Positions 22,256 through 28,673 of a DNA stretch of 64,000 bases are shown here, one piece after another (within the stretch, counting starts at the first letter, position 1; every line of letters starts with the position of its first letter). The stretch covers positions 8,635 through 72,634 of the forward strand of contig JAPOHH010000003.1 of NCBI GenBank assembly GCA_029979505.1. Reading direction: 5' to 3'. Position numbers and translations under genes: made by a program. The notes under the pieces are model-generated. The model was not told where the DNA came from. It did no database searches and was given only the letters and a program-made list of their open reading frames with translations. The DNA comes from a bacterium (GTDB lineage Bacteria > Pseudomonadota > Gammaproteobacteria > GCA-002705445 > GCA-002716945).

Positions 22256-22486
22256 TTAATTCTTTTTAATCAAAAAATAGAATTTATTATCCTTAGATTC
22301 TGATGATAGTAGTTCATTGCCAGTTTGACTAGCAAATGATTCAAAATCCATCACAGCTCCTGGGTCTGTAGAAATTACATGAAGAACTTGGCCTGTCTCC
22401 ATAGTATTAATTTCTTTTTTTGCTTTAATGATAGGCAATGGACAATTTAATCCGCTTGTATCTAGTTCTTTTGTAAATTCACTCAT
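22256..22486 (-). CDS. TusA-like sulfurtransferase
   Basis: 76 aa. LNCPLPIIKAK carries the conserved CPxP active-site motif of the TusA/YeeD family. Confidence 0.7.
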   Translation of the reverse strand: MSEFTKELDTSGLNCPLPIIKAKKEINTMETGQVLHVISTDPGAVMDFESFASQTGNELLSSESKDNKFYFLIKKN

Positions 22487-22581: not shown

Positions 22582-24000
22582 ATGTATAAATTTTTATTAA
22601 TTACCTTATTACTATTTGCTTCAGGCAATTCATCCTCACATTCAGATATGGAGTCGCCTAAACTAGGTGATACGTTAAATAAGACGATTACAATTGATGA
22701 AGAAGAGAAGATTGGTAGAAATATCTATAAAAACCTTCAAAAAAATAACTATATTATCAATAATTATTTTATATACGACTACATAACCTATCTTGGAAAT
22801 AGACTAAGTAGAAATATTTTACTCGAAAGAGATTATTTATTTTTCATAACTAAATCCACAGATGTGAATGCATTTGCTGTTCCAGGTGGATTTATGGGTA
22901 TAAATGCTGGATTAATGGTTCTAACCCAGAACGAGGCTCAACTGGCTGGTGTCATATCTCATGAATTGGGCCACGTAGTATTAAGACATTCAGCTGAAAT
23001 GATGGCAAATAGTAATGTTAATTCAATTCCTATGTGGATAGGTATTTTTGCAGGCCTTTTAGCTGGACAGACAGAGGCAAGTATAGCTTCTATAAAATCT
23101 GGGATCGGTTTGTCAATACAAAACAATATTAACCTAGTCAGAGAAAATGAAATTGAATCTGATAATTTTGCTGTCTCTTTGATGCTAAAGAGTAATTACG
23201 ATTTGAATGAAATGGCAAAATTTTTTCGGCTAATGCAAGGGGATGCAAATAATCAAAATCAAGTTAATGAATACTTTTTGACTCATCCATTATATAAAAA
23301 CAGAATAAGCTCTATTCAGAAACGTGCTGAGTACCAGGATAATCCAATGACAAATAGTTCTGACGATTATCATTACATAAAAAATTTACTTGAAAACATG
23401 TTAGGAATACCAGTAGATGCTAACTCAACAAAAACTGAAGCTCTAAAAAATCATCGTGCGGCATTGAGTTATATGAGTCAAGGTGAGTATTTGAAAGCTA
23501 AAAAAGTACTACAACCAAGTTATGACAAAGATAATTATAATATATATATCGCATCATTAATGTCTGAAATTTTATGGTTGCATGGTGAAAAAAATATTTC
23601 TAAAAACATTCTAAAAAAGATACTAGCGATTTACCCAAATAACAATGCCATAAATAATCAGCTTTATTTTTTTAATATTAAAGATTCTGTAAATCTAAAA
23701 GCTTCCTTATCAGGATTAAATAAATTGATGGAGCATAATCTATATAATCCTGATTCTTATAAACTATTAGCAGAAGGATACTCAAAAATAGACTATACAT
23801 ACGAATCTAAAATTGCACTAATAAATTATTACAACATTAAGGGTAATATGCCTATGGCATTCAAAGTTATCGATGATGGATTAAAATTAAAAAAACTCAA
23901 CAATTCACAAAAAGATAGTCTTAAGAGACTCAAAAACACTATTTTATGTGATACTAATCCCCCGCTTGAGCCTATATTTGGCAATAAAACCTGCAATTAA
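22582..24000 (+). CDS. M48 family metallopeptidase with TPR repeats (BepA/YfgC-like), secreted
   Basis: 472 aa. Signal peptide, HELGHVVLRH zinc motif, NAFAVPGG, and a TPR-like C-terminal half. Confidence 0.7.
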   Translation: MYKFLLITLLLFASGNSSSHSDMESPKLGDTLNKTITIDEEEKIGRNIYKNLQKNNYIINNYFIYDYITYLGNRLSRNILLERDYLFFITKSTDVNAFAVPGGFMGINAGLMVLTQNEAQLAGVISHELGHVVLRHSAEMMANSNVNSIPMWIGIFAGLLAGQTEASIASIKSGIGLSIQNNINLVRENEIESDNFAVSLMLKSNYDLNEMAKFFRLMQGDANNQNQVNEYFLTHPLYKNRISSIQKRAEYQDNPMTNSSDDYHYIKNLLENMLGIPVDANSTKTEALKNHRAALSYMSQGEYLKAKKVLQPSYDKDNYNIYIASLMSEILWLHGEKNISKNILKKILAIYPNNNAINNQLYFFNIKDSVNLKASLSGLNKLMEHNLYNPDSYKLLAEGYSKIDYTYESKIALINYYNIKGNMPMAFKVIDDGLKLKKLNNSQKDSLKRLKNTILCDTNPPLEPIFGNKTCN

Positions 24001-24041
24001 AAAATGTTTTAATAAAATGCATTCATCTATATAATGTAGCC

Positions 24042-24377
24042 ATGAAAAGCTTAATGAAATACCTCATATTTATCCTGATTGCAGCACCTATGTATGCAGT
24101 TGGTGATAATATTGAAGAAGGAAAAAAGCTAACATTTGATAGGAAAAAAGGCAATTGCCTTGCTTGTCATATGATTGATGATGGTGAACTTGCAGGTAAT
24201 AACGGACCTCCACTGCTTGCCATGAAACAAAGGTTCCCTGATAGAGAAGTGTTATTTCAACAAATATGGGATCCAACAGAAAGTAATCCGTACTCATTTA
24301 TGCCTCCATTTGGCAAACATGGTGCATTAACTAAAAACGAAATTAATAAGATAATGGATTATCTATACACATTGTGA
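24042..24377 (+). CDS. soxX: sulfur-oxidation c-type cytochrome SoxX
   Basis: 111 aa. Signal peptide and a single GNCLACHM heme motif. First gene of a soxXYZA run. Confidence 0.75.
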   Translation: MKSLMKYLIFILIAAPMYAVGDNIEEGKKLTFDRKKGNCLACHMIDDGELAGNNGPPLLAMKQRFPDREVLFQQIWDPTESNPYSFMPPFGKHGALTKNEINKIMDYLYTL

Positions 24378-24384
24378 GGCAAAT

Positions 24385-24846
24385 ATGAAAAGAAGAAATT
24401 TCATAAAAAATAGTATCTTGTTTGCGGGAGCTCTTGCAGTAGCGCCAGCAGCGATATTATCTAATCATGCATATGCTGCATGGCCAAAAAAATCTTTTGA
24501 CATCAAAGATTTGGCAGATTCTGTGAAAAGTGTTTATGGCCATAATAATTTAGAGGAATCCTCTAAAGTTAAGCTTAAAGCTCCTTCAATCGCAGAAAAT
24601 GGAGCTATTGTTCCGATAAATGTTTCAACCACTTTAGACAATGTTGAATCAATAATGATTTTTGTTGAAAATAATCCACAGCCGTTATCTAGTGGGTATC
24701 AACTCACAAACTTAGCAGAGCCTTCAATTGGCACAAGACTTAAGATGGGTAAAACATCAAATGTCATGGCTGCGGTAAAAAGTGGTGATAAAGTATACAC
24801 CTCAACACAAGAAGTAAAAGTAACAATCGGAGGCTGCGGAGGATAA
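24385..24846 (+). CDS. soxY: sulfur carrier protein SoxY
   Basis: 153 aa. Tat signal RRNFIK and a C-terminal GGCGG* carrier-cysteine motif. Confidence 0.85.
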   Translation: MKRRNFIKNSILFAGALAVAPAAILSNHAYAAWPKKSFDIKDLADSVKSVYGHNNLEESSKVKLKAPSIAENGAIVPINVSTTLDNVESIMIFVENNPQPLSSGYQLTNLAEPSIGTRLKMGKTSNVMAAVKSGDKVYTSTQEVKVTIGGCGG

Positions 24847-24848
24847 TT

Positions 24849-25157
24849 ATGAGCACTATTAAGATGAGATCGAAAGAATCAAATGGCGTTGTAACTGTAA
24901 AGGCTCTTATAAAGCATCCTATGGAGACAGGGCAACGTAAAAATAAGAAAACAGGTGACTTAATTCCTGCACACTACATTCAAGAAGTTCATGGAAAAGC
25001 TAATAATAAGGACATTATAACAATTCATTGGGGACCTGCTGTTTCGAAGAATCCTTACCTTACTTTTAAATATAAAGGTAGCAAAGGCGATAATGTTCAA
25101 ATTTCCTGGGTAGATAATCAAGGAAACAGAGATACAAACACAGGTAAGGTTAAATAG
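24849..25157 (+). CDS. soxZ: SoxZ
   Basis: 102 aa. Located 2 nt after soxY, with conserved soxYZ pairing. Confidence 0.75.
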   Translation: MSTIKMRSKESNGVVTVKALIKHPMETGQRKNKKTGDLIPAHYIQEVHGKANNKDIITIHWGPAVSKNPYLTFKYKGSKGDNVQISWVDNQGNRDTNTGKVK

Positions 25158-25159
25158 TA

Positions 25160-25987
25160 ATGTTCAGAAAGTTCTTGGTGATTATATTATTACTTCCTGC
25201 TATATCATCTTTAGCTAGTCCTGAGAATGATTATGAAAAGTTTGTAGAGTATTTTAAAGATAGATTCCCAAATACACCTTACGAAGATTATAAAAATGGC
25301 GTTTATTCTATTGATAAGTCTGCAAGGGAACAATGGGAAGCAATGGAGGAGTTTCCTCCATACGAACTTAACGTTGACCGCGGTGAAGAATTATTTAACA
25401 CTCCATTCAAAAATGGTAATACTTACGGCTCATGCTTTGAAAATAATGGAATTGGAATAAGACAAAACTATCCTTATTTTGATGAGGATAAAGCTAAAGT
25501 TGTAACCCTAGAAGGTGCACTTAATGAATGTAGAATTAAAAATGGCGAGAAGCCTCTCAGTTACTTCAAAGGTAAAGAACTAGCACACGTGTCAGCGTAT
25601 ATGGCTTACACATCTAGAGGGAATAAATTTAATGTACAAATTCCTAATACTCAAGCAGCACTTGATGCATATGAAAATGGTAAGAGACTCTATTTTACAA
25701 AAAAAGGTCAATTAAATTTTTCATGTGCTGATTGTCATGTTTATCAAACTGGTACTAAACTCCGTGCAGACATCCCAAGCCCTGCAATTGGTCACCCAAC
25801 ACATTTTCCAGTATATAGATCGGGCATGGGAAGATTGGTAACACTTCATGAAAGATTCTCGGGATGCCTAAATCGTATCAGAGCAAAAGGATTACCTGGC
25901 GGAAGTGATGAGCTTAACAACTTAGAGTTCTTTACAACTTTTATGAGCAATGGCCTAGAAGTAAATGGACCAGGCTCTAGAAAATAA
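25160..25987 (+). CDS. soxA: SoxA cytochrome (monoheme type)
   Basis: 275 aa. Signal peptide, a single CADCH heme motif, and a downstream Cys (FSGCLNR) that is the likely heme-ligand/persulfide cysteine. Confidence 0.75.
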   Translation: MFRKFLVIILLLPAISSLASPENDYEKFVEYFKDRFPNTPYEDYKNGVYSIDKSAREQWEAMEEFPPYELNVDRGEELFNTPFKNGNTYGSCFENNGIGIRQNYPYFDEDKAKVVTLEGALNECRIKNGEKPLSYFKGKELAHVSAYMAYTSRGNKFNVQIPNTQAALDAYENGKRLYFTKKGQLNFSCADCHVYQTGTKLRADIPSPAIGHPTHFPVYRSGMGRLVTLHERFSGCLNRIRAKGLPGGSDELNNLEFFTTFMSNGLEVNGPGSRK

Positions 25988-26011
25988 ATTCAAATAAGAT
26001 ATACTCATCAT

Positions 26012-26512
26012 ATGTTCAGCAAGAGCTTAAGTAGAACTTTCGTTTATATATTCACTATTGCGCTACTATCTTCATGTGCAAACATGCAAGCAATGATTGA
26101 GTCTCAAGCTCAGGAAGAGCAAGAAATATCAGTAGAACAAAAGCTTCAAGTAGCAATTCCATTGCCAGAAGATTCGAAATATCTTATTAATAAGACTGTT
26201 ATATTTGGAGAAGGAAGCAAATTTTCTGGAATACTCTATCTTCAACATGATAAGTCAGCAGATGATATAGCTAACTTCTATAGAAAAAACCTTATATCAG
26301 ATGGATGGTCAGAAATTGGAATTGTGAGATCAAGGTTTATCTTAATTAATTTCGAAAAAGAAAATAGATTTGCGACTATTAAAGTGATACGTACCATGTT
26401 TGAAAAATCAGAATCAGAGATTACGATTGGTCCAAAATCATCAACACAGTTAGAAAAGAGTTTAGAAATTGATAGTAATAGCTCATCTGACGAACCATTT
26501 ATAGTTCAGTAA
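26012..26512 (+). CDS. uncharacterised lipoprotein, sox-associated by position
   Basis: 166 aa. Lipobox LLSSC-A. Starts 24 nt after the soxA stop on the same strand. No family recognised. Confidence 0.4.
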   Translation: MFSKSLSRTFVYIFTIALLSSCANMQAMIESQAQEEQEISVEQKLQVAIPLPEDSKYLINKTVIFGEGSKFSGILYLQHDKSADDIANFYRKNLISDGWSEIGIVRSRFILINFEKENRFATIKVIRTMFEKSESEITIGPKSSTQLEKSLEIDSNSSSDEPFIVQ

Positions 26513-27390
26513 TCACTCCAAGATTACATCAATGACTTCGTCTAGATATAAATCTCTAAAGAAGTGTCCTGCTCCATCAACTATCACAGTTCTTATATTA
26601 GCGTTGTTAATTAAATCATATTTTTTATATGTATCTTCTAAAATCTCATCTTCAGTTCCAGAAAAGACTATCGTCTGTGATTTGCTATCATTTAGCAGCT
26701 CAATCATATCAAAAGTAAAAGGATATAAATCTTTATTATTTGAAAAATCTAGATATGATCTGAATGTCTTAGCTGATACATTAACATTTTCACAAAAAAG
26801 AAAATTGATTAATCCATACTTATCTTTTATATAATAGTTTTTGTTATCACTTATAATATCTTTGTAGGGTATATTTAATTCATTTTCGTAATATTCCTTC
26901 GTACCTATATAAGTATCAATGGTAGGTGCTAGTAAGTAACTATTTACAGTTGCTTTGTCAATTATAGATAATGCTTGGACAACATTATAAGCTCCTCTTG
27001 AATGTCCAATAAAATTTATTTTTTTATAACATTTATTTTCAAGATATTTATACCATTTTACTATTTCTTTAACTGACTGATGCTCATTATGATTATGCTT
27101 TATATTACAATCCAAAAATTTATCTTCACGTTTGTCAATCCCATAACTTAAATTTATAGTTAGCACGTCATACCCTTCGCTATGCAATCTAGATGTGAGT
27201 GATTGAATAATTTCCATCCCTTTATATGATCTTGCTCCATGGACAATTAAAAATACAGAATCATTTTTTTCAATACGATACAATTCTCCAACAAGTTCAA
27301 TATCATGCTGGCTTTGAAGAATAATTTGATTGGGAGATGATTTTGCTGGTTCGATGAAAATAGTTATTATACATAAGGCAGTGATTAGTA
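26513..27390 (-). CDS. alpha/beta-fold hydrolase (start unresolved)
   Basis: VFLIVHG oxyanion strand and GHSRG nucleophile elbow. The only in-frame ATG (27487) lies beyond tRNA-Lys and would read through it, so the real start must be a non-ATG codon at or below 27390, or the gene is N-truncated. Confidence 0.5.
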
Positions 27391-27393
27391 AAC

Positions 27394-27466
27394 TAGGGCG
27401 TACAGGATTCGAACCTGTGACAAATGGCTTAAAAGGCCACTGCTCTACCAACTGAGCTAACGCCCC
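27394..27466 (-). tRNA. tRNA-Lys (anticodon UUU)
   Basis: 73 nt with a 7-bp acceptor stem and discriminator A. D arm UAGCUCAGUUGGUAGAGCA; anticodon loop CUUUUAA; T arm CAGGUUCGAAUCCUG. Near-identical to canonical bacterial tRNA-Lys. Confidence 0.9.
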
Positions 27467-27473
27467 AAATATA

Positions 27474-28673
27474 CTATATTTTCTCAAGAGTTCTAATTTT
27501 CTCAGGTAATACTTTTAAATCTATCAAAGAATTTTTGACGAGTTCAAAAAAAGTACTATCTTCATATACTGCTCTATAATACTCGATTTTCATCATTAAT
27601 GAAGCTCCGAATATAATTGATATCAATGTAATTATAGATCCTAATGCAAGTGTAGAAACACCAGTTACTCCTTGACCAATTGTGCATCCTAGTGAGAGAA
27701 CACCTCCTATACCAATTAACACTGCTCCCAAAAGATGTCTGAAGAAATCATGTTTATTTGCAAACCATTCTATTCTTAGATTATTACTAACTAATGCATA
27801 AACAAATGACCCAAACACAGTCGAAATAAGTGCAGTAACACCAAATGTTAAATAGAAACTATCGAATATGCTTGATGAATATATCAAAAATTCACCCATT
27901 GGATTAATAAAGGTAAATGACTGAACTCCAACCGATGGATATGGTGTGTCTAGGAAATCATTATTTTCAATCCAATTCTGTCCAAGTTCGCCACCTGATA
28001 TAAGCCATGCTAATGTAACAACTAATCCAACAACAAATCCAGATAAGATATTATCAGATGAAAGCTTTGAATATGATGAAAATATATACTTCAATAGAAA
28101 TATGCTTATTAAAGCAGGCAAAAAGAGTGTAATTATCATGTTACTTGAGTCTATCCCTGTAAGGGATGCTAACATAGTGTGGAGAGACTGATCTGAAATA
28201 CCTAATTTAGCTAAATCAGGACTGATGGGATTCATCCAACTGTGAAATAAAAGCCCATAAAAATCTGTTCTAGTCATTAATAAGGCCATTAATCCAGCTA
28301 TAATTAAAACGAATACAGATTTAATGTTTCCTCCCCCTATTCTGATTAAAATTTTATTGCCGCACCCACTTGCTAGTGTCATACCAATTCCAAACATGAT
28401 TCCACCAAGTATGTACCTCGGCCAAAAAAATACGGAATTTCTGTACGGGATTCTTGACTCATCTATATCTACGATACTCATATACTCAAGTAGTGTAACT
28501 CCAACAATTGCAGTAGTAATTGCAAGAAGCCATGCTTTAAATCTTGAACTATCTCCAATATTAACTAAATCTGAGACAGCCCCCATAGTACAGAAATTTG
28601 TTTTATTAACAACGTACCCAAGTATAAACCCTAATACAGATGTGTAAATTAATAGTGTAGTAATGATATCCAT
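27474..28673 (-). CDS. YeeE/YedE family transporter (thiosulfate/sulfur-compound uptake)
   Basis: 399 aa polytopic membrane protein with duplicated halves, each carrying a conserved Cys-containing loop (GCGNK / GCTIGQG). Stop codon lies 8 nt upstream of tRNA-Lys. Confidence 0.7.
   Translation of the reverse strand: MDIITTLLIYTSVLGFILGYVVNKTNFCTMGAVSDLVNIGDSSRFKAWLLAITTAIVGVTLLEYMSIVDIDESRIPYRNSVFFWPRYILGGIMFGIGMTLASGCGNKILIRIGGGNIKSVFVLIIAGLMALLMTRTDFYGLLFHSWMNPISPDLAKLGISDQSLHTMLASLTGIDSSNMIITLFLPALISIFLLKYIFSSYSKLSSDNILSGFVVGLVVTLAWLISGGELGQNWIENNDFLDTPYPSVGVQSFTFINPMGEFLIYSSSIFDSFYLTFGVTALISTVFGSFVYALVSNNLRIEWFANKHDFFRHLLGAVLIGIGGVLSLGCTIGQGVTGVSTLALGSIITLISIIFGASLMMKIEYYRAVYEDSTFFELVKNSLIDLKVLPEKIRTLEKI

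Follow-up and report, generated by a model that had tools for sequence, protein, structure and literature searches.

A conserved soxXYZA operon and its lipoprotein neighbour in a lineage of uncultured marine gammaproteobacteria

The soxXYZA genes and their surroundings

We analysed a stretch of 64,000 nucleotides (64 kb, referred to as the window) from a lineage of abundant, AT-rich, uncultured marine gammaproteobacteria. Four sox genes lie on its plus strand and are followed by the gene of a small lipoprotein. The features are listed below in the order of their positions; the first and the last are given for context only.

22256..22486, minus strand: tusA-like sulfur-carrier gene (PF01206, E=9.6e-24)
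24030..24035, plus strand: -10-like hexamer TATAAT, putative sox promoter, 6 nt before the soxX ATG
24042..24377, plus strand: soxX, 111 aa, Sec signal, monohaem c-type cytochrome (CLACH)
24385..24846, plus strand: soxY, 153 aa, sulfur carrier, RR Tat signal, C-terminal GGCGG arm
24849..25157, plus strand: soxZ, 102 aa, partner of SoxY
25160..25987, plus strand: soxA, 275 aa, monohaem SoxA with a single CxxCH (CADCH)
26000..26005, plus strand: -10-like hexamer TATACT, putative lipoprotein promoter, 6 nt before the ATG
26012..26512, plus strand: 166-aa lipoprotein, signal peptide, LSSC lipobox (Cys22)
27474..28673, minus strand: YeeE/YedE-family (SoxT-like) membrane protein (PF04143 Sulf_transp, E=4.7e-53)

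A Sox identity was assigned where a protein scored above the curated cut-off of an NCBIfam equivalog model. SoxX reached 93.1 bits against a cut-off of 61 (TIGR04485, E=1.3e-26) and also belongs to the Pfam family Cytochrom_C. For SoxY we obtained 164.5 bits with the model SoxY_true_GGCGG (TIGR04488, cut-off 125; PF13501), for SoxZ 130.8 bits (TIGR04490, cut-off 76; PF08770) and for SoxA 216.5 bits (TIGR04484, cut-off 110, E=2.4e-64; PF21342). All four scores are far above chance. The gaps between the genes are 7 nt (soxX to soxY), 2 nt (soxY to soxZ) and 2 nt (soxZ to soxA), and another 24 nt separate soxA from the lipoprotein gene. Shine-Dalgarno sequences precede soxY (GAGG), soxZ (GGAGG) and soxA, and none was found at the soxX start. 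SoxY begins with the twin-arginine sequence MKRRNFIK and ends in TIGGCGG. The original prediction had described a soxXYZA cluster with gaps of 2-7 nt, a SoxY with Tat signal and GGCGG tail and a 166-aa lipoprotein encoded 24 nt past soxA. The open reading frames on the plus strand and the four HMM scores bear out the first of these points, both SoxY features are present in the sequence, and the ORF coordinates agree with the last. The locus encodes the usual core of the Sox system for periplasmic thiosulfate oxidation, a known kind of sox module, and this part of it brings no new mechanism.

The SoxA protein had also been predicted to carry one CxxCH instead of two, which holds: CADCH is the only such motif. 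In an alignment with the dihaem SoxA of Paracoccus (2c1d_A, E=6.4e-26) the first haem site, CASCH, corresponds to YGSCF in our protein, while CADCH and FSGCLN, the latter with the Cys ligand, align to CANCH and FVGCVR. The second haem site and the Cys ligand are kept, and both are invariant across the lineage. A monohaem SoxA is an already known state that is found in types II and III (PMC4003848), and with its one CxxCH the protein is monohaem like the SoxA of type III SoxAXK. Its nearest matches with a solved structure are of type I. The top match was the SoxAX of Paracoccus pantotrophus (2C1D, E=6.4e-26), followed by that of Rhodovulum sulfidophilum (1H31-1H33, E=1.8e-25), and in both the CxxCH of the active haem and the Cys ligand align with our SoxA; however, these type I proteins are dihaem, whereas the SoxA studied here has lost the N-terminal haem site. 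The type II SoxA of Starkeya novella (3OA8) is monohaem as well (PMC4003848), but its sequence match is much more distant (E=9.8e-10) and the SoxX of that organism is longer, with 208 residues in the solved chain compared to 111 in the precursor here.

We scanned metagenome contigs with the SoxA alignment and confirmed 345 stretches as SoxA relatives; all 80 of those kept belong to this lineage. A further homologue search for soxA contexts outside the lineage likewise returned this lineage only; identities were at least 65% in both searches. Some of the relatives are labelled Ectothiorhodospiraceae.

The gene order around the operon is highly conserved. A block of ∼10 kb, ilvB-tusA-bepA-soxXYZA-lipo-hydrolase-yeeE-queCE, is syntenic in every genome of the lineage. 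The position of tusA is the same in the 25 genome loci that extend that far, and so is the position of the YeeE-like gene in the lineage; the YeeE-like protein scores below the NCBIfam cut-offs for TsuA. SoxT genes adjoining sox clusters have been described before (PMC11582611). A convergent alpha/beta hydrolase gene abuts the stop codon of the lipoprotein gene, and the YeeE-like gene follows at ∼1 kb on the opposite strand. An Rfam scan identified two tRNAs only and no riboswitch or sRNA near sox.

The lipoprotein and its family

The lipoprotein gene lies directly 3' of soxA in all 28 related genomes and on all 69 metagenome contigs. The 28 loci were found via the lipoprotein and all have soxXYZA, and the 69 were found via SoxA and all have the lipoprotein. 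The co-occurrence is thus perfect in both directions, although identity drops to 64% for SoxA and to 47% for the lipoprotein. Linkage to soxA in relatives had been proposed as a check of the prediction, and this linkage is conserved.

The lipobox region reads MFSKSLSRTFVYIFTIALLS-SC with the cysteine at position 22, in line with the pattern of bacterial lipoproteins, a signal peptide and then [LVI][ASTVI][GAS]C. The residues S-C-A of the lipobox are invariant in an alignment of 13 sequences, and the wider family has Cys22 throughout. The alignment of 13 sequences contains 40 invariant columns at 50-87% identity; this conservation marks the reading frame as a genuine gene that purifying selection maintains. 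The protein consists of a disordered tether up to about residue 45, an alpha+beta domain (∼50-142) and a disordered tail that ends in the conserved, lineage-specific motif [DE][DEQ]PFx[IV][QEK]. In the mature protein (residues 23-166) we found no Cys, CxxCH or metal motif.

The protein had been described as being of unknown family. Neither the lipoprotein nor 31 members of its family matched a Pfam or NCBIfam model, with a Pfam set that lacked PF27226. Precomputed matches to PF27226 (AF_1845) exist for a close homologue (P0007) and for many distant ones (e.g. P0197), and a profile search ties the lipoprotein of the window to relatives carrying PF27226 at 1e-14 to 1e-8. An exhaustive profile search returned eight representative clusters at E≤1e-30, after which the scores fall steadily through fragments of the same proteins, and the first full-length relatives outside the lineage appear at ∼1e-14. 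The subfamily of the lineage is sharply set apart, with at least 47% identity inside and at most 32% to the rest of the family. On sequence grounds we regard the protein as a lineage-confined subfamily of a broad PF27226-like family of small periplasmic lipoproteins. In ten contexts examined for the wider family there were no sox genes (0/10); the gene of a CDF transporter came next in five and that of an MFS transporter in three.

Two AF2 models of the lipoprotein agree in topology and have a core pLDDT of 92-97. We compared them to the PDB with Foldseek. The best matches were DcrB, Flpp3, MTC28, EagT6 and PsbP, all of them weak (E≥4.7e-3, TM ∼0.4); no match was obtained at E≤1e-3, and none of the best matches is an enzyme or a redox protein. 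For both models the top match was DcrB, a periplasmic lipoprotein of Salmonella (6E8A) that likewise has a small lipid-anchored alpha+beta domain. However, it is a weak match (E=4.7e-3, TMq 0.38, TMt 0.42, 7-8% identity) and there is no sequence homology. The predicted likeness to the DcrB/DUF1795/PsbP/Mog1-like fold is a weak one and a resemblance only. Searching the sequences of the PDB with a profile of the lipoprotein gave only a chance match (1u0l, E=0.16).

Promoter-like elements

In 53 of 84 loci, soxX has a TATAAT-like hexamer 4-9 nt upstream of its ATG, with a spacing of 6 nt in the subclade of the window. Most loci of the deeper branches have a conserved GTACTATAAT 12-17 nt upstream of soxX instead. 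We infer that the hexamer at soxX is a putative sox promoter from which a leaderless or very short-leader mRNA would be made. The gene upstream, bepA, was considered as head of the sox operon and rejected given the conserved -10 element directly before soxX.

A similar element precedes the lipoprotein gene. Of 67 distinct upstream sequences, 62 have TATACT, TATAAT or TACAAT 6-7 nt upstream of its ATG and one more has such a hexamer at 9 nt, while the spacer and the distance from soxA to the lipoprotein ATG (13 to 25 nt) vary across loci. No Shine-Dalgarno sequence was found for this gene. Most likely the lipoprotein gene has its own promoter giving a leaderless mRNA, a function that we deduce from the conservation of the hexamer.

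In this AT-rich DNA a generic promoter and terminator scan performed no better than on shuffled sequence, with 43 promoter-like sites compared to 36 expected, and therefore our reading of the promoters rests on the conservation across loci instead. The scan also lists TAGAAA-16-TATACT at 25978-26005. What weakens the promoter reading is that, by the same criterion, 10 of 58 genes of this AT-rich genome have a -10-like hexamer near their start. On the plus strand the scan detected no terminator, including in the gap of 13-25 nt between soxA and the lipoprotein gene; read-through from soxA is therefore likely as well.

Pathway and role of the lipoprotein

The reading that we favour, with somewhat better than even confidence, is that of a standard Sox core with a lipoprotein as its fixed neighbour, the latter likely with its own promoter and not a demonstrated member of the Sox system. 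The sox genes would be expressed as one tightly packed soxXYZA transcript that starts directly before soxX, with gaps of 2-7 nt and three Shine-Dalgarno sites. The pair of monohaem SoxA and monohaem SoxX would oxidatively join thiosulfate to the cysteine of the SoxY GGCGG arm, and SoxZ would hold SoxY. We propose these steps because they are established Sox biochemistry and the family membership of the proteins is shown. SoxB, the sulfate thiohydrolase, is needed by any working Sox cycle, and its gene would have to lie at another site of the genome, as it does in other Gammaproteobacteria whose sox genes are dispersed. In the lipoprotein a flexible tether would join the lipid anchor to a single non-catalytic alpha+beta domain, DcrB/PsbP-like in shape, and the protein may act in the periplasm as a binding or scaffold protein tethered to the membrane. 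As it likely has its own promoter and a leaderless mRNA, we read it as a neighbour of sox rather than as a demonstrated component.

The original prediction had noted that no soxB or soxCD follows soxA. We scanned 47 ORFs of the window, including all ORFs of at least 250 aa, and found no soxB, soxCD, dsr or apr gene among them, nor were shdr genes seen in the window. Apart from tusA and the YeeE-like transporter the remaining genes are housekeeping genes (ilv, leuA, aspS, secA, the dcw cluster etc.). From the missing soxCD a branched, sulfur-storing Sox system had been deduced. The window does not support this deduction: 64 kb are not a genome, and split sox loci are well known, so that local absence is uninformative on a truncated pathway. 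Thiomicrospira crunogena has the full set, with soxXYZA, soxB and soxCD at three sites (PMC1635747), and dispersed sox genes have been noted for Ectothiorhodospirales (PMC11582611).

The locus of T. crunogena (Hydrogenovibrio crunogenus) XCL-2 is also similar in other respects. Tcr0601-0604 have the same order soxX-Y-Z-A and form a stand-alone gammaproteobacterial operon with soxB elsewhere (PMC1635747), and its SoxA is monohaem, type III-like and without SoxK (PMC4891895); the locus studied here equally encodes a monohaem SoxA and no soxK. The organism differs in that it lives at vents as a chemolithoautotroph and has soxB and soxCD, as documented, at other sites, whereas here only 64 kb were read. 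To our knowledge, no lipoprotein gene has been described downstream of soxA in that organism.

A Sox system without SoxCD, in which thiosulfate oxidation is branched and the sulfane sulfur is stored or sent to cytoplasmic rDsr or sHdr, is plausible all the same but falls short of an even chance. In its favour are the lack of soxCD in the window and the genes for TusA and a YeeE/SoxT-like membrane protein that border the operon in all genomes; SoxT1A and TusA-type transferases pass Sox-derived sulfur to cytoplasmic oxidation in an organism whose Sox system is truncated (PMC11582611). However, SoxT2-type YeeE proteins of Paracoccus also adjoin complete sox clusters (PMC11582611), and TusA carries sulfur for general housekeeping. 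The absence of a gene from one window is not its absence from the genome, and since soxB is indispensable and yet lies outside the window too, the sox genes are evidently scattered, as they are at the three separate loci of T. crunogena (PMC1635747). No dsr, apr or shdr genes were seen in the 64 kb. Whether the pathway is branched is a genome-wide matter and compatible with either reading of the lipoprotein.

The lipoprotein had been put forward as a candidate accessory component. What stands of this is the conserved linkage to soxA; the linkage does not discriminate, though, because the whole neighbourhood of ∼10 kb is equally syntenic, and the sox-free contexts of the wider family and the gene's own -10 element speak against it. 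We consider a role in Sox possible, but on the doubtful side. As a true accessory subunit the protein would stabilise or localise the monohaem SoxAX in the way of SoxK, or dock SoxYZ, perhaps via its [DE][DEQ]PF tail, and we hold this proposal to be similarly tentative. Several observations are in line with it. The gene is co-oriented and immediately 3' of soxA in 97 of 97 loci, the subfamily occurs only together with this sox operon, the protein is periplasmic like the Sox proteins, its predicted fold is non-catalytic and scaffold-like, akin to PsbP/DcrB, and the acidic C-terminal motif is conserved and specific to the lineage.

A further argument comes from SoxK. SoxK (SAXB; CT1020/Alvin_2170) is a small protein of ∼11 kDa that is soluble in the periplasm. 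In the type III SoxAXK systems of Chlorobaculum tepidum and Allochromatium vinosum, SoxA is monohaem and the gene of a small non-redox protein comes directly after soxA, as in our locus. In A. vinosum the genes soxX-A-K-L are Alvin_2168-2171, with soxK directly after soxA (PMC3368242), and SoxK holds SoxA and SoxX together (PMC3368242; PMC4003848). Type III monohaem SoxA requires SoxK (PMC4891895), the lipoprotein gene occupies the soxK position of type III soxXA(K) clusters (PMC3368242), and no soxK or SoxK-like small protein is encoded at the locus. On the other hand, and unlike SoxK, the protein of this locus is a ∼16-kDa lipoprotein whose family is otherwise unlinked to sox. A replacement of SoxK is not required either, because other Gammaproteobacteria, among them Thiomicrospira and Thioalkalimicrobium, use type III-like SoxAX without SoxK (PMC4891895).

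The covariation of evolutionary rates (mirror-tree, 24 genomes) shows no Sox-specific signal. The rate residuals of the lipoprotein correlate with those of BepA at 0.60, SoxY at 0.36, SoxA at 0.22 and SoxX at -0.31. Fast evolvers intercorrelate, and the BepA signal is probably an artefact of this. Adjacency in a fully syntenic neighbourhood carries little information, the distant homologues stand next to sox in none of ten contexts, and the apparent own promoter with its leaderless geometry also counts against an accessory subunit. In its most specific form, an unrecognised membrane-anchored Sox component that is made from its own leaderless transcript and replaces SoxK on SoxAX or docks SoxYZ by its tail, the proposal appears distinctly improbable to us.

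It is unlikely, too, that the lipoprotein performs another envelope role of its wider family, as a transporter partner or in envelope biogenesis (BepA, lipoprotein trafficking), and is next to sox incidentally in a streamlined genome. A co-oriented CDF or MFS transporter gene directly follows the homologue in eight of the ten distant contexts, the best fold match is an envelope lipoprotein (DcrB), the rate residuals correlate best with BepA and the gene has an apparent own promoter; but in this lineage the next gene is the convergent hydrolase and not a transporter, the YeeE-like gene is ∼1 kb off and on the minus strand, the match to DcrB is a weak one and the covariation signal is probably the artefact described above.

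For the favoured reading, a standard Sox core and its fixed neighbour, the significance lies with the lineage: a very abundant, uncultured marine lineage has a conserved soxXYZA core, which bears on the use of thiosulfate in the surface ocean. Both soxX and the lipoprotein gene have a conserved geometry between the -10 element and the ATG, a small hint of leaderless transcripts in this lineage. Binding of the lipoprotein to SoxAX or SoxYZ would make it a new accessory subunit, and such binding, if true, would be an answer to how monohaem SoxAX complexes without SoxK are stabilised.

The sox genes and their surroundings

The window derives from an AT-rich lineage of uncultured marine gammaproteobacteria that share the soxXYZA-lipoprotein locus, and its G+C content is ∼30% throughout. 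The locus is composed as follows.

22256-22486, minus strand: tusA, sulfur carrier, upstream of soxX
22582-24000, plus strand: BepA-like M48 protease gene, upstream of soxX
24030-24035, plus strand: -10-like hexamer TATAAT, exactly 6 nt before the soxX ATG
24042-24377, plus strand: soxX, gap to soxY 7 nt; TIGR04485 93.1 bits (cut-off 61)
24385-24846, plus strand: soxY, gap to soxZ 2 nt; TIGR04488 164.5 bits (cut-off 125)
24849-25157, plus strand: soxZ, gap to soxA 2 nt; TIGR04490 130.8 bits (cut-off 76)
25160-25987, plus strand: soxA, gap to the lipoprotein gene 24 nt; TIGR04484 216.5 bits (cut-off 110)
26000-26005, plus strand: -10-like hexamer TATACT, exactly 6 nt before the lipoprotein ATG
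26012-26512, plus strand: lipoprotein, 166 aa, 3' end abutting a convergent gene
26513-27487, minus strand: alpha/beta-hydrolase ORF, 324 aa, convergent, its stop abutting the lipoprotein stop codon
27393-27467, minus strand: tRNA-Lys(UUU), inside the listed hydrolase ORF
27474-28673, minus strand: YeeE/YedE-family membrane protein, 399 aa (PF04143, E=4.7e-53)

We judged the Sox calls against the curated NCBIfam equivalog cut-offs. All four genes exceeded them and the Pfam assignments were consistent, so that the identities given in the original prediction stand, as do its intergenic gaps, which agree with the ORF list and with the raw sequence. The claimed Tat signal and tail of SoxY were found as MKRRNFIK at the N-terminus and GGCGG at the C-terminus; the haem motif of SoxX is CLACH. 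SoxA had been described with one CxxCH instead of two, and CADCH is indeed its single copy: in an alignment to the diheme Paracoccus SoxA (PDB 2c1d_A, E=6.4e-26) the first haem motif, CASCH, is replaced by YGSCF. The second haem motif and the cysteine ligand (FSGCLN) are retained and both are invariant across the lineage. In the N-terminal domain, where the haem site was lost, C92 (GSCFEN) and C124 (NECR) are also invariant across the lineage, and a disulfide between them could replace the haem. Monohaem SoxA is already known, both as type II and, with the SoxAX-binding protein SoxK, as type III (PMC4003848), and a type III-like SoxA without SoxK occurs in some Gammaproteobacteria (PMC4891895). 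The sox module is a further example of a well-known type.

What is listed as the N-terminal part of the hydrolase ORF (…GALAQLVEQWPFKPFVTGSNPVRPS…) is in fact translated sequence of the tRNA-Lys(UUU) gene. The hydrolase gene itself must therefore begin beyond the tRNA, probably where a hydrophobic segment resembling a signal is encoded.

We scanned 47 window ORFs, including all of at least 250 aa, and found no soxB, soxCD, dsr or apr among them, in line with the reported lack of adjacent soxB and soxCD. Apart from the sox block, TusA and the YeeE-like protein, the scanned ORFs are housekeeping genes, for example serS, ftsK, thrC, hom, leuA, ilvBHC, aspS, nadA, an RND efflux pump, secA, lpxC, ftsA, ddl and ftsI. 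The original prediction took the missing neighbours as the mark of a truncated, sulfur-storing pathway, which does not follow. SoxB is a requirement of every Sox cycle, and since soxB is likewise missing from the window the sox genes are evidently dispersed. In Thiomicrospira crunogena XCL-2 the Sox system is complete, with soxXYZA, soxB and soxCD occupying three distinct loci (PMC1635747), and sox genes that are not syntenic have been described for Ectothiorhodospirales as well (PMC11582611).

The tusA and YeeE-like genes lie on one strand and flank the bepA-soxXYZA-lipoprotein block, an arrangement that every related genome retains; they resemble a yeeE-yeeD/tusA pair split by ∼5 kb including the tRNA gene. 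The YeeE-like protein, which is SoxT-like, scores under the TsuA cut-offs and, at 399 aa, exceeds the 330-350 aa typical of TsuA/SoxT. Import of Sox-derived sulfur into the cytoplasm through these two flanking proteins would fit by analogy with SoxT1A of Hyphomicrobium denitrificans, for which such import was shown; however, TusA is a general sulfur carrier and SoxT2-type genes also adjoin complete sox clusters (PMC11582611).

The lipoprotein family

The 166-aa protein encoded 24 nt past soxA bears both a signal peptide and a lipobox (LSSC), and it found no match in our local Pfam and NCBIfam libraries (the Pfam copy being without the PF27226 model), which agrees with its description as a lipoprotein of no known family. 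An exhaustive profile search over 1.84 billion representative proteins returned 386 clusters at E<=1e-3, of which no more than 8 reach 1e-30. Below that the scores drop steadily via fragments of the same lipoproteins, and full-length relatives outside the lineage begin only at ∼1e-14; this drop marks the sox-linked lipoprotein as a sharply separate subfamily confined to the lineage. Identity is at least 47% within it and at most 32% to all other proteins. The alignment places this uncharacterised subfamily within a broad family of 150-200-aa lipoproteins, many of which carry precomputed PF27226 (AF_1845) matches.

No sox genes occur near any of the 10 distant family members whose genomic context we examined. 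The next gene downstream, co-oriented, encodes a small CDF cation-efflux protein in five contexts (loci L030, L031, L034, L117 and the contig of homologue P0315) and an MFS transporter in three (L032, L116, L118), a hint that membrane transporters are partners of the wider family. Four distant contexts also contain, further downstream, an unknown ∼405-aa protein and an EutA-like ∼497-aa protein.

Scanning a single genome for each GTDB species, we identified 28 lipoprotein loci, all from uncultured marine Gammaproteobacteria, some of them labelled Ectothiorhodospiraceae. Wherever the contig extends far enough they share the order ilvB, tusA, bepA, soxX, soxY, soxZ, soxA, lipoprotein, hydrolase, yeeE, queC, queE, the sole exception being the absence of the hydrolase in two loci (L018, L019). 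The lineage is very abundant in marine metagenomes, including Tara Oceans samples. Close relatives of the lipoprotein number ∼130 in marine metagenomes. A SoxA-seeded metagenome scan confirmed 345 stretches as SoxA relatives, and all 80 that were kept (L036-L115) come from this lineage; in 69/69 of those with downstream room, the gene immediately after soxA is that of the lipoprotein. The soxA linkage is thus perfectly conserved in relatives, in genomes and metagenomes alike. We also sought soxA contexts outside the lineage, and both the metagenome scan and the homologue search gave matches solely from within it; the protein collection holds >7000 SoxA clusters at E<=1e-10, part of them from outside the lineage.

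We built two AlphaFold2 models, the second on a 60-sequence alignment, for which mean pLDDT was 75-78 in all five models and 92-97 in the core. The predicted layout is a signal/anchor helix, a tether that stays disordered up to about residue 45, a single alpha+beta domain (two short strands at its N-terminus, five longer ones and one long helix) and a tail that is again disordered. A Foldseek search of the PDB returned weak matches only (best E=4.7e-3, TM ∼0.4), namely DcrB, Flpp3, MTC28, EagT6/SciW and PsbP, all of which are small binding or scaffold proteins without catalytic activity and several of which are lipoproteins. The mature sequence is free of cysteines and of haem or metal motifs. 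Beyond a disordered region of low conservation it closes with an acidic C-terminal motif, [DE][DEQ]PFx[IV][QEK], here DEPFIVQ (26489-26509), which is conserved in the lineage, missing from the wider family and looks like a short docking peptide.

Transcription and translation signals

GAGG, GGAGG and AAGG precede soxY, soxZ and soxA, respectively, and a Shine-Dalgarno sequence is missing upstream of soxX and of the lipoprotein gene. Only ∼12 of the 58 window genes have a recognisable one; this organism may often initiate translation on leaderless mRNAs or independently of a Shine-Dalgarno sequence. A -10-like hexamer lies 4-9 nt before the start in 10 of the 58 genes, so a single occurrence is unremarkable and the weight rests on positional conservation across the lineage. 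Of 67 distinct sequences upstream of the lipoprotein gene, 63 contain TATACT, TATAAT or TACAAT, and in 62 of these the hexamer stands 6-7 nt from the ATG. The spacer itself is freely variable in sequence, and the soxA stop lies 13 to 25 nt from the ATG. When a -10 element ends 6 nt upstream of the A of the start codon, the spacing is that expected for a leaderless mRNA. From this pattern we infer a putative promoter of the lipoprotein gene's own; read-through from soxA is also likely, as no terminator fits in the gap.

The soxX hexamer arrangement is shared within the window's subclade, and most loci of the deeper branch have a conserved GTACTATAAT slightly further upstream of soxX. Given this conserved putative -10 element, bepA probably lies outside the sox transcript. 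In the deeper branch (L013-L028) GGTACTATAAT precedes soxX and TAGGTATAAT or TAGGTACAAT the lipoprotein gene, with a common GGTA-n-TATAAT-like core; the two putative promoters could be recognised or regulated alike.

The lipoprotein and the Sox system

On balance we lean slightly towards a neighbouring periplasmic lipoprotein without a demonstrated Sox role. That it is a Sox accessory subunit, as the original prediction proposed, appears rather doubtful. Such a role would agree with the perfect co-occurrence and shared orientation with soxA, the periplasmic location common to the lipoprotein and Sox, the predicted scaffold-like fold and the lineage-specific tail motif. The gene also occupies the place directly after soxA that soxK holds in the soxX-A-K-L cluster of A. 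vinosum (PMC3368242). However, the entire 10-kb neighbourhood is syntenic in the lineage, so that a position next to soxA tells us no more than one next to queC would, and the lipoprotein gene has an apparently independent promoter. Moreover, the wider family is unconnected to sox (0/10 contexts), SoxK is not required in comparable organisms and a rate-covariation test gave no Sox-specific signal for the lipoprotein. On present evidence a lipoprotein beside sox is no discovery; as an uncharacterised protein it merits cheap follow-up.
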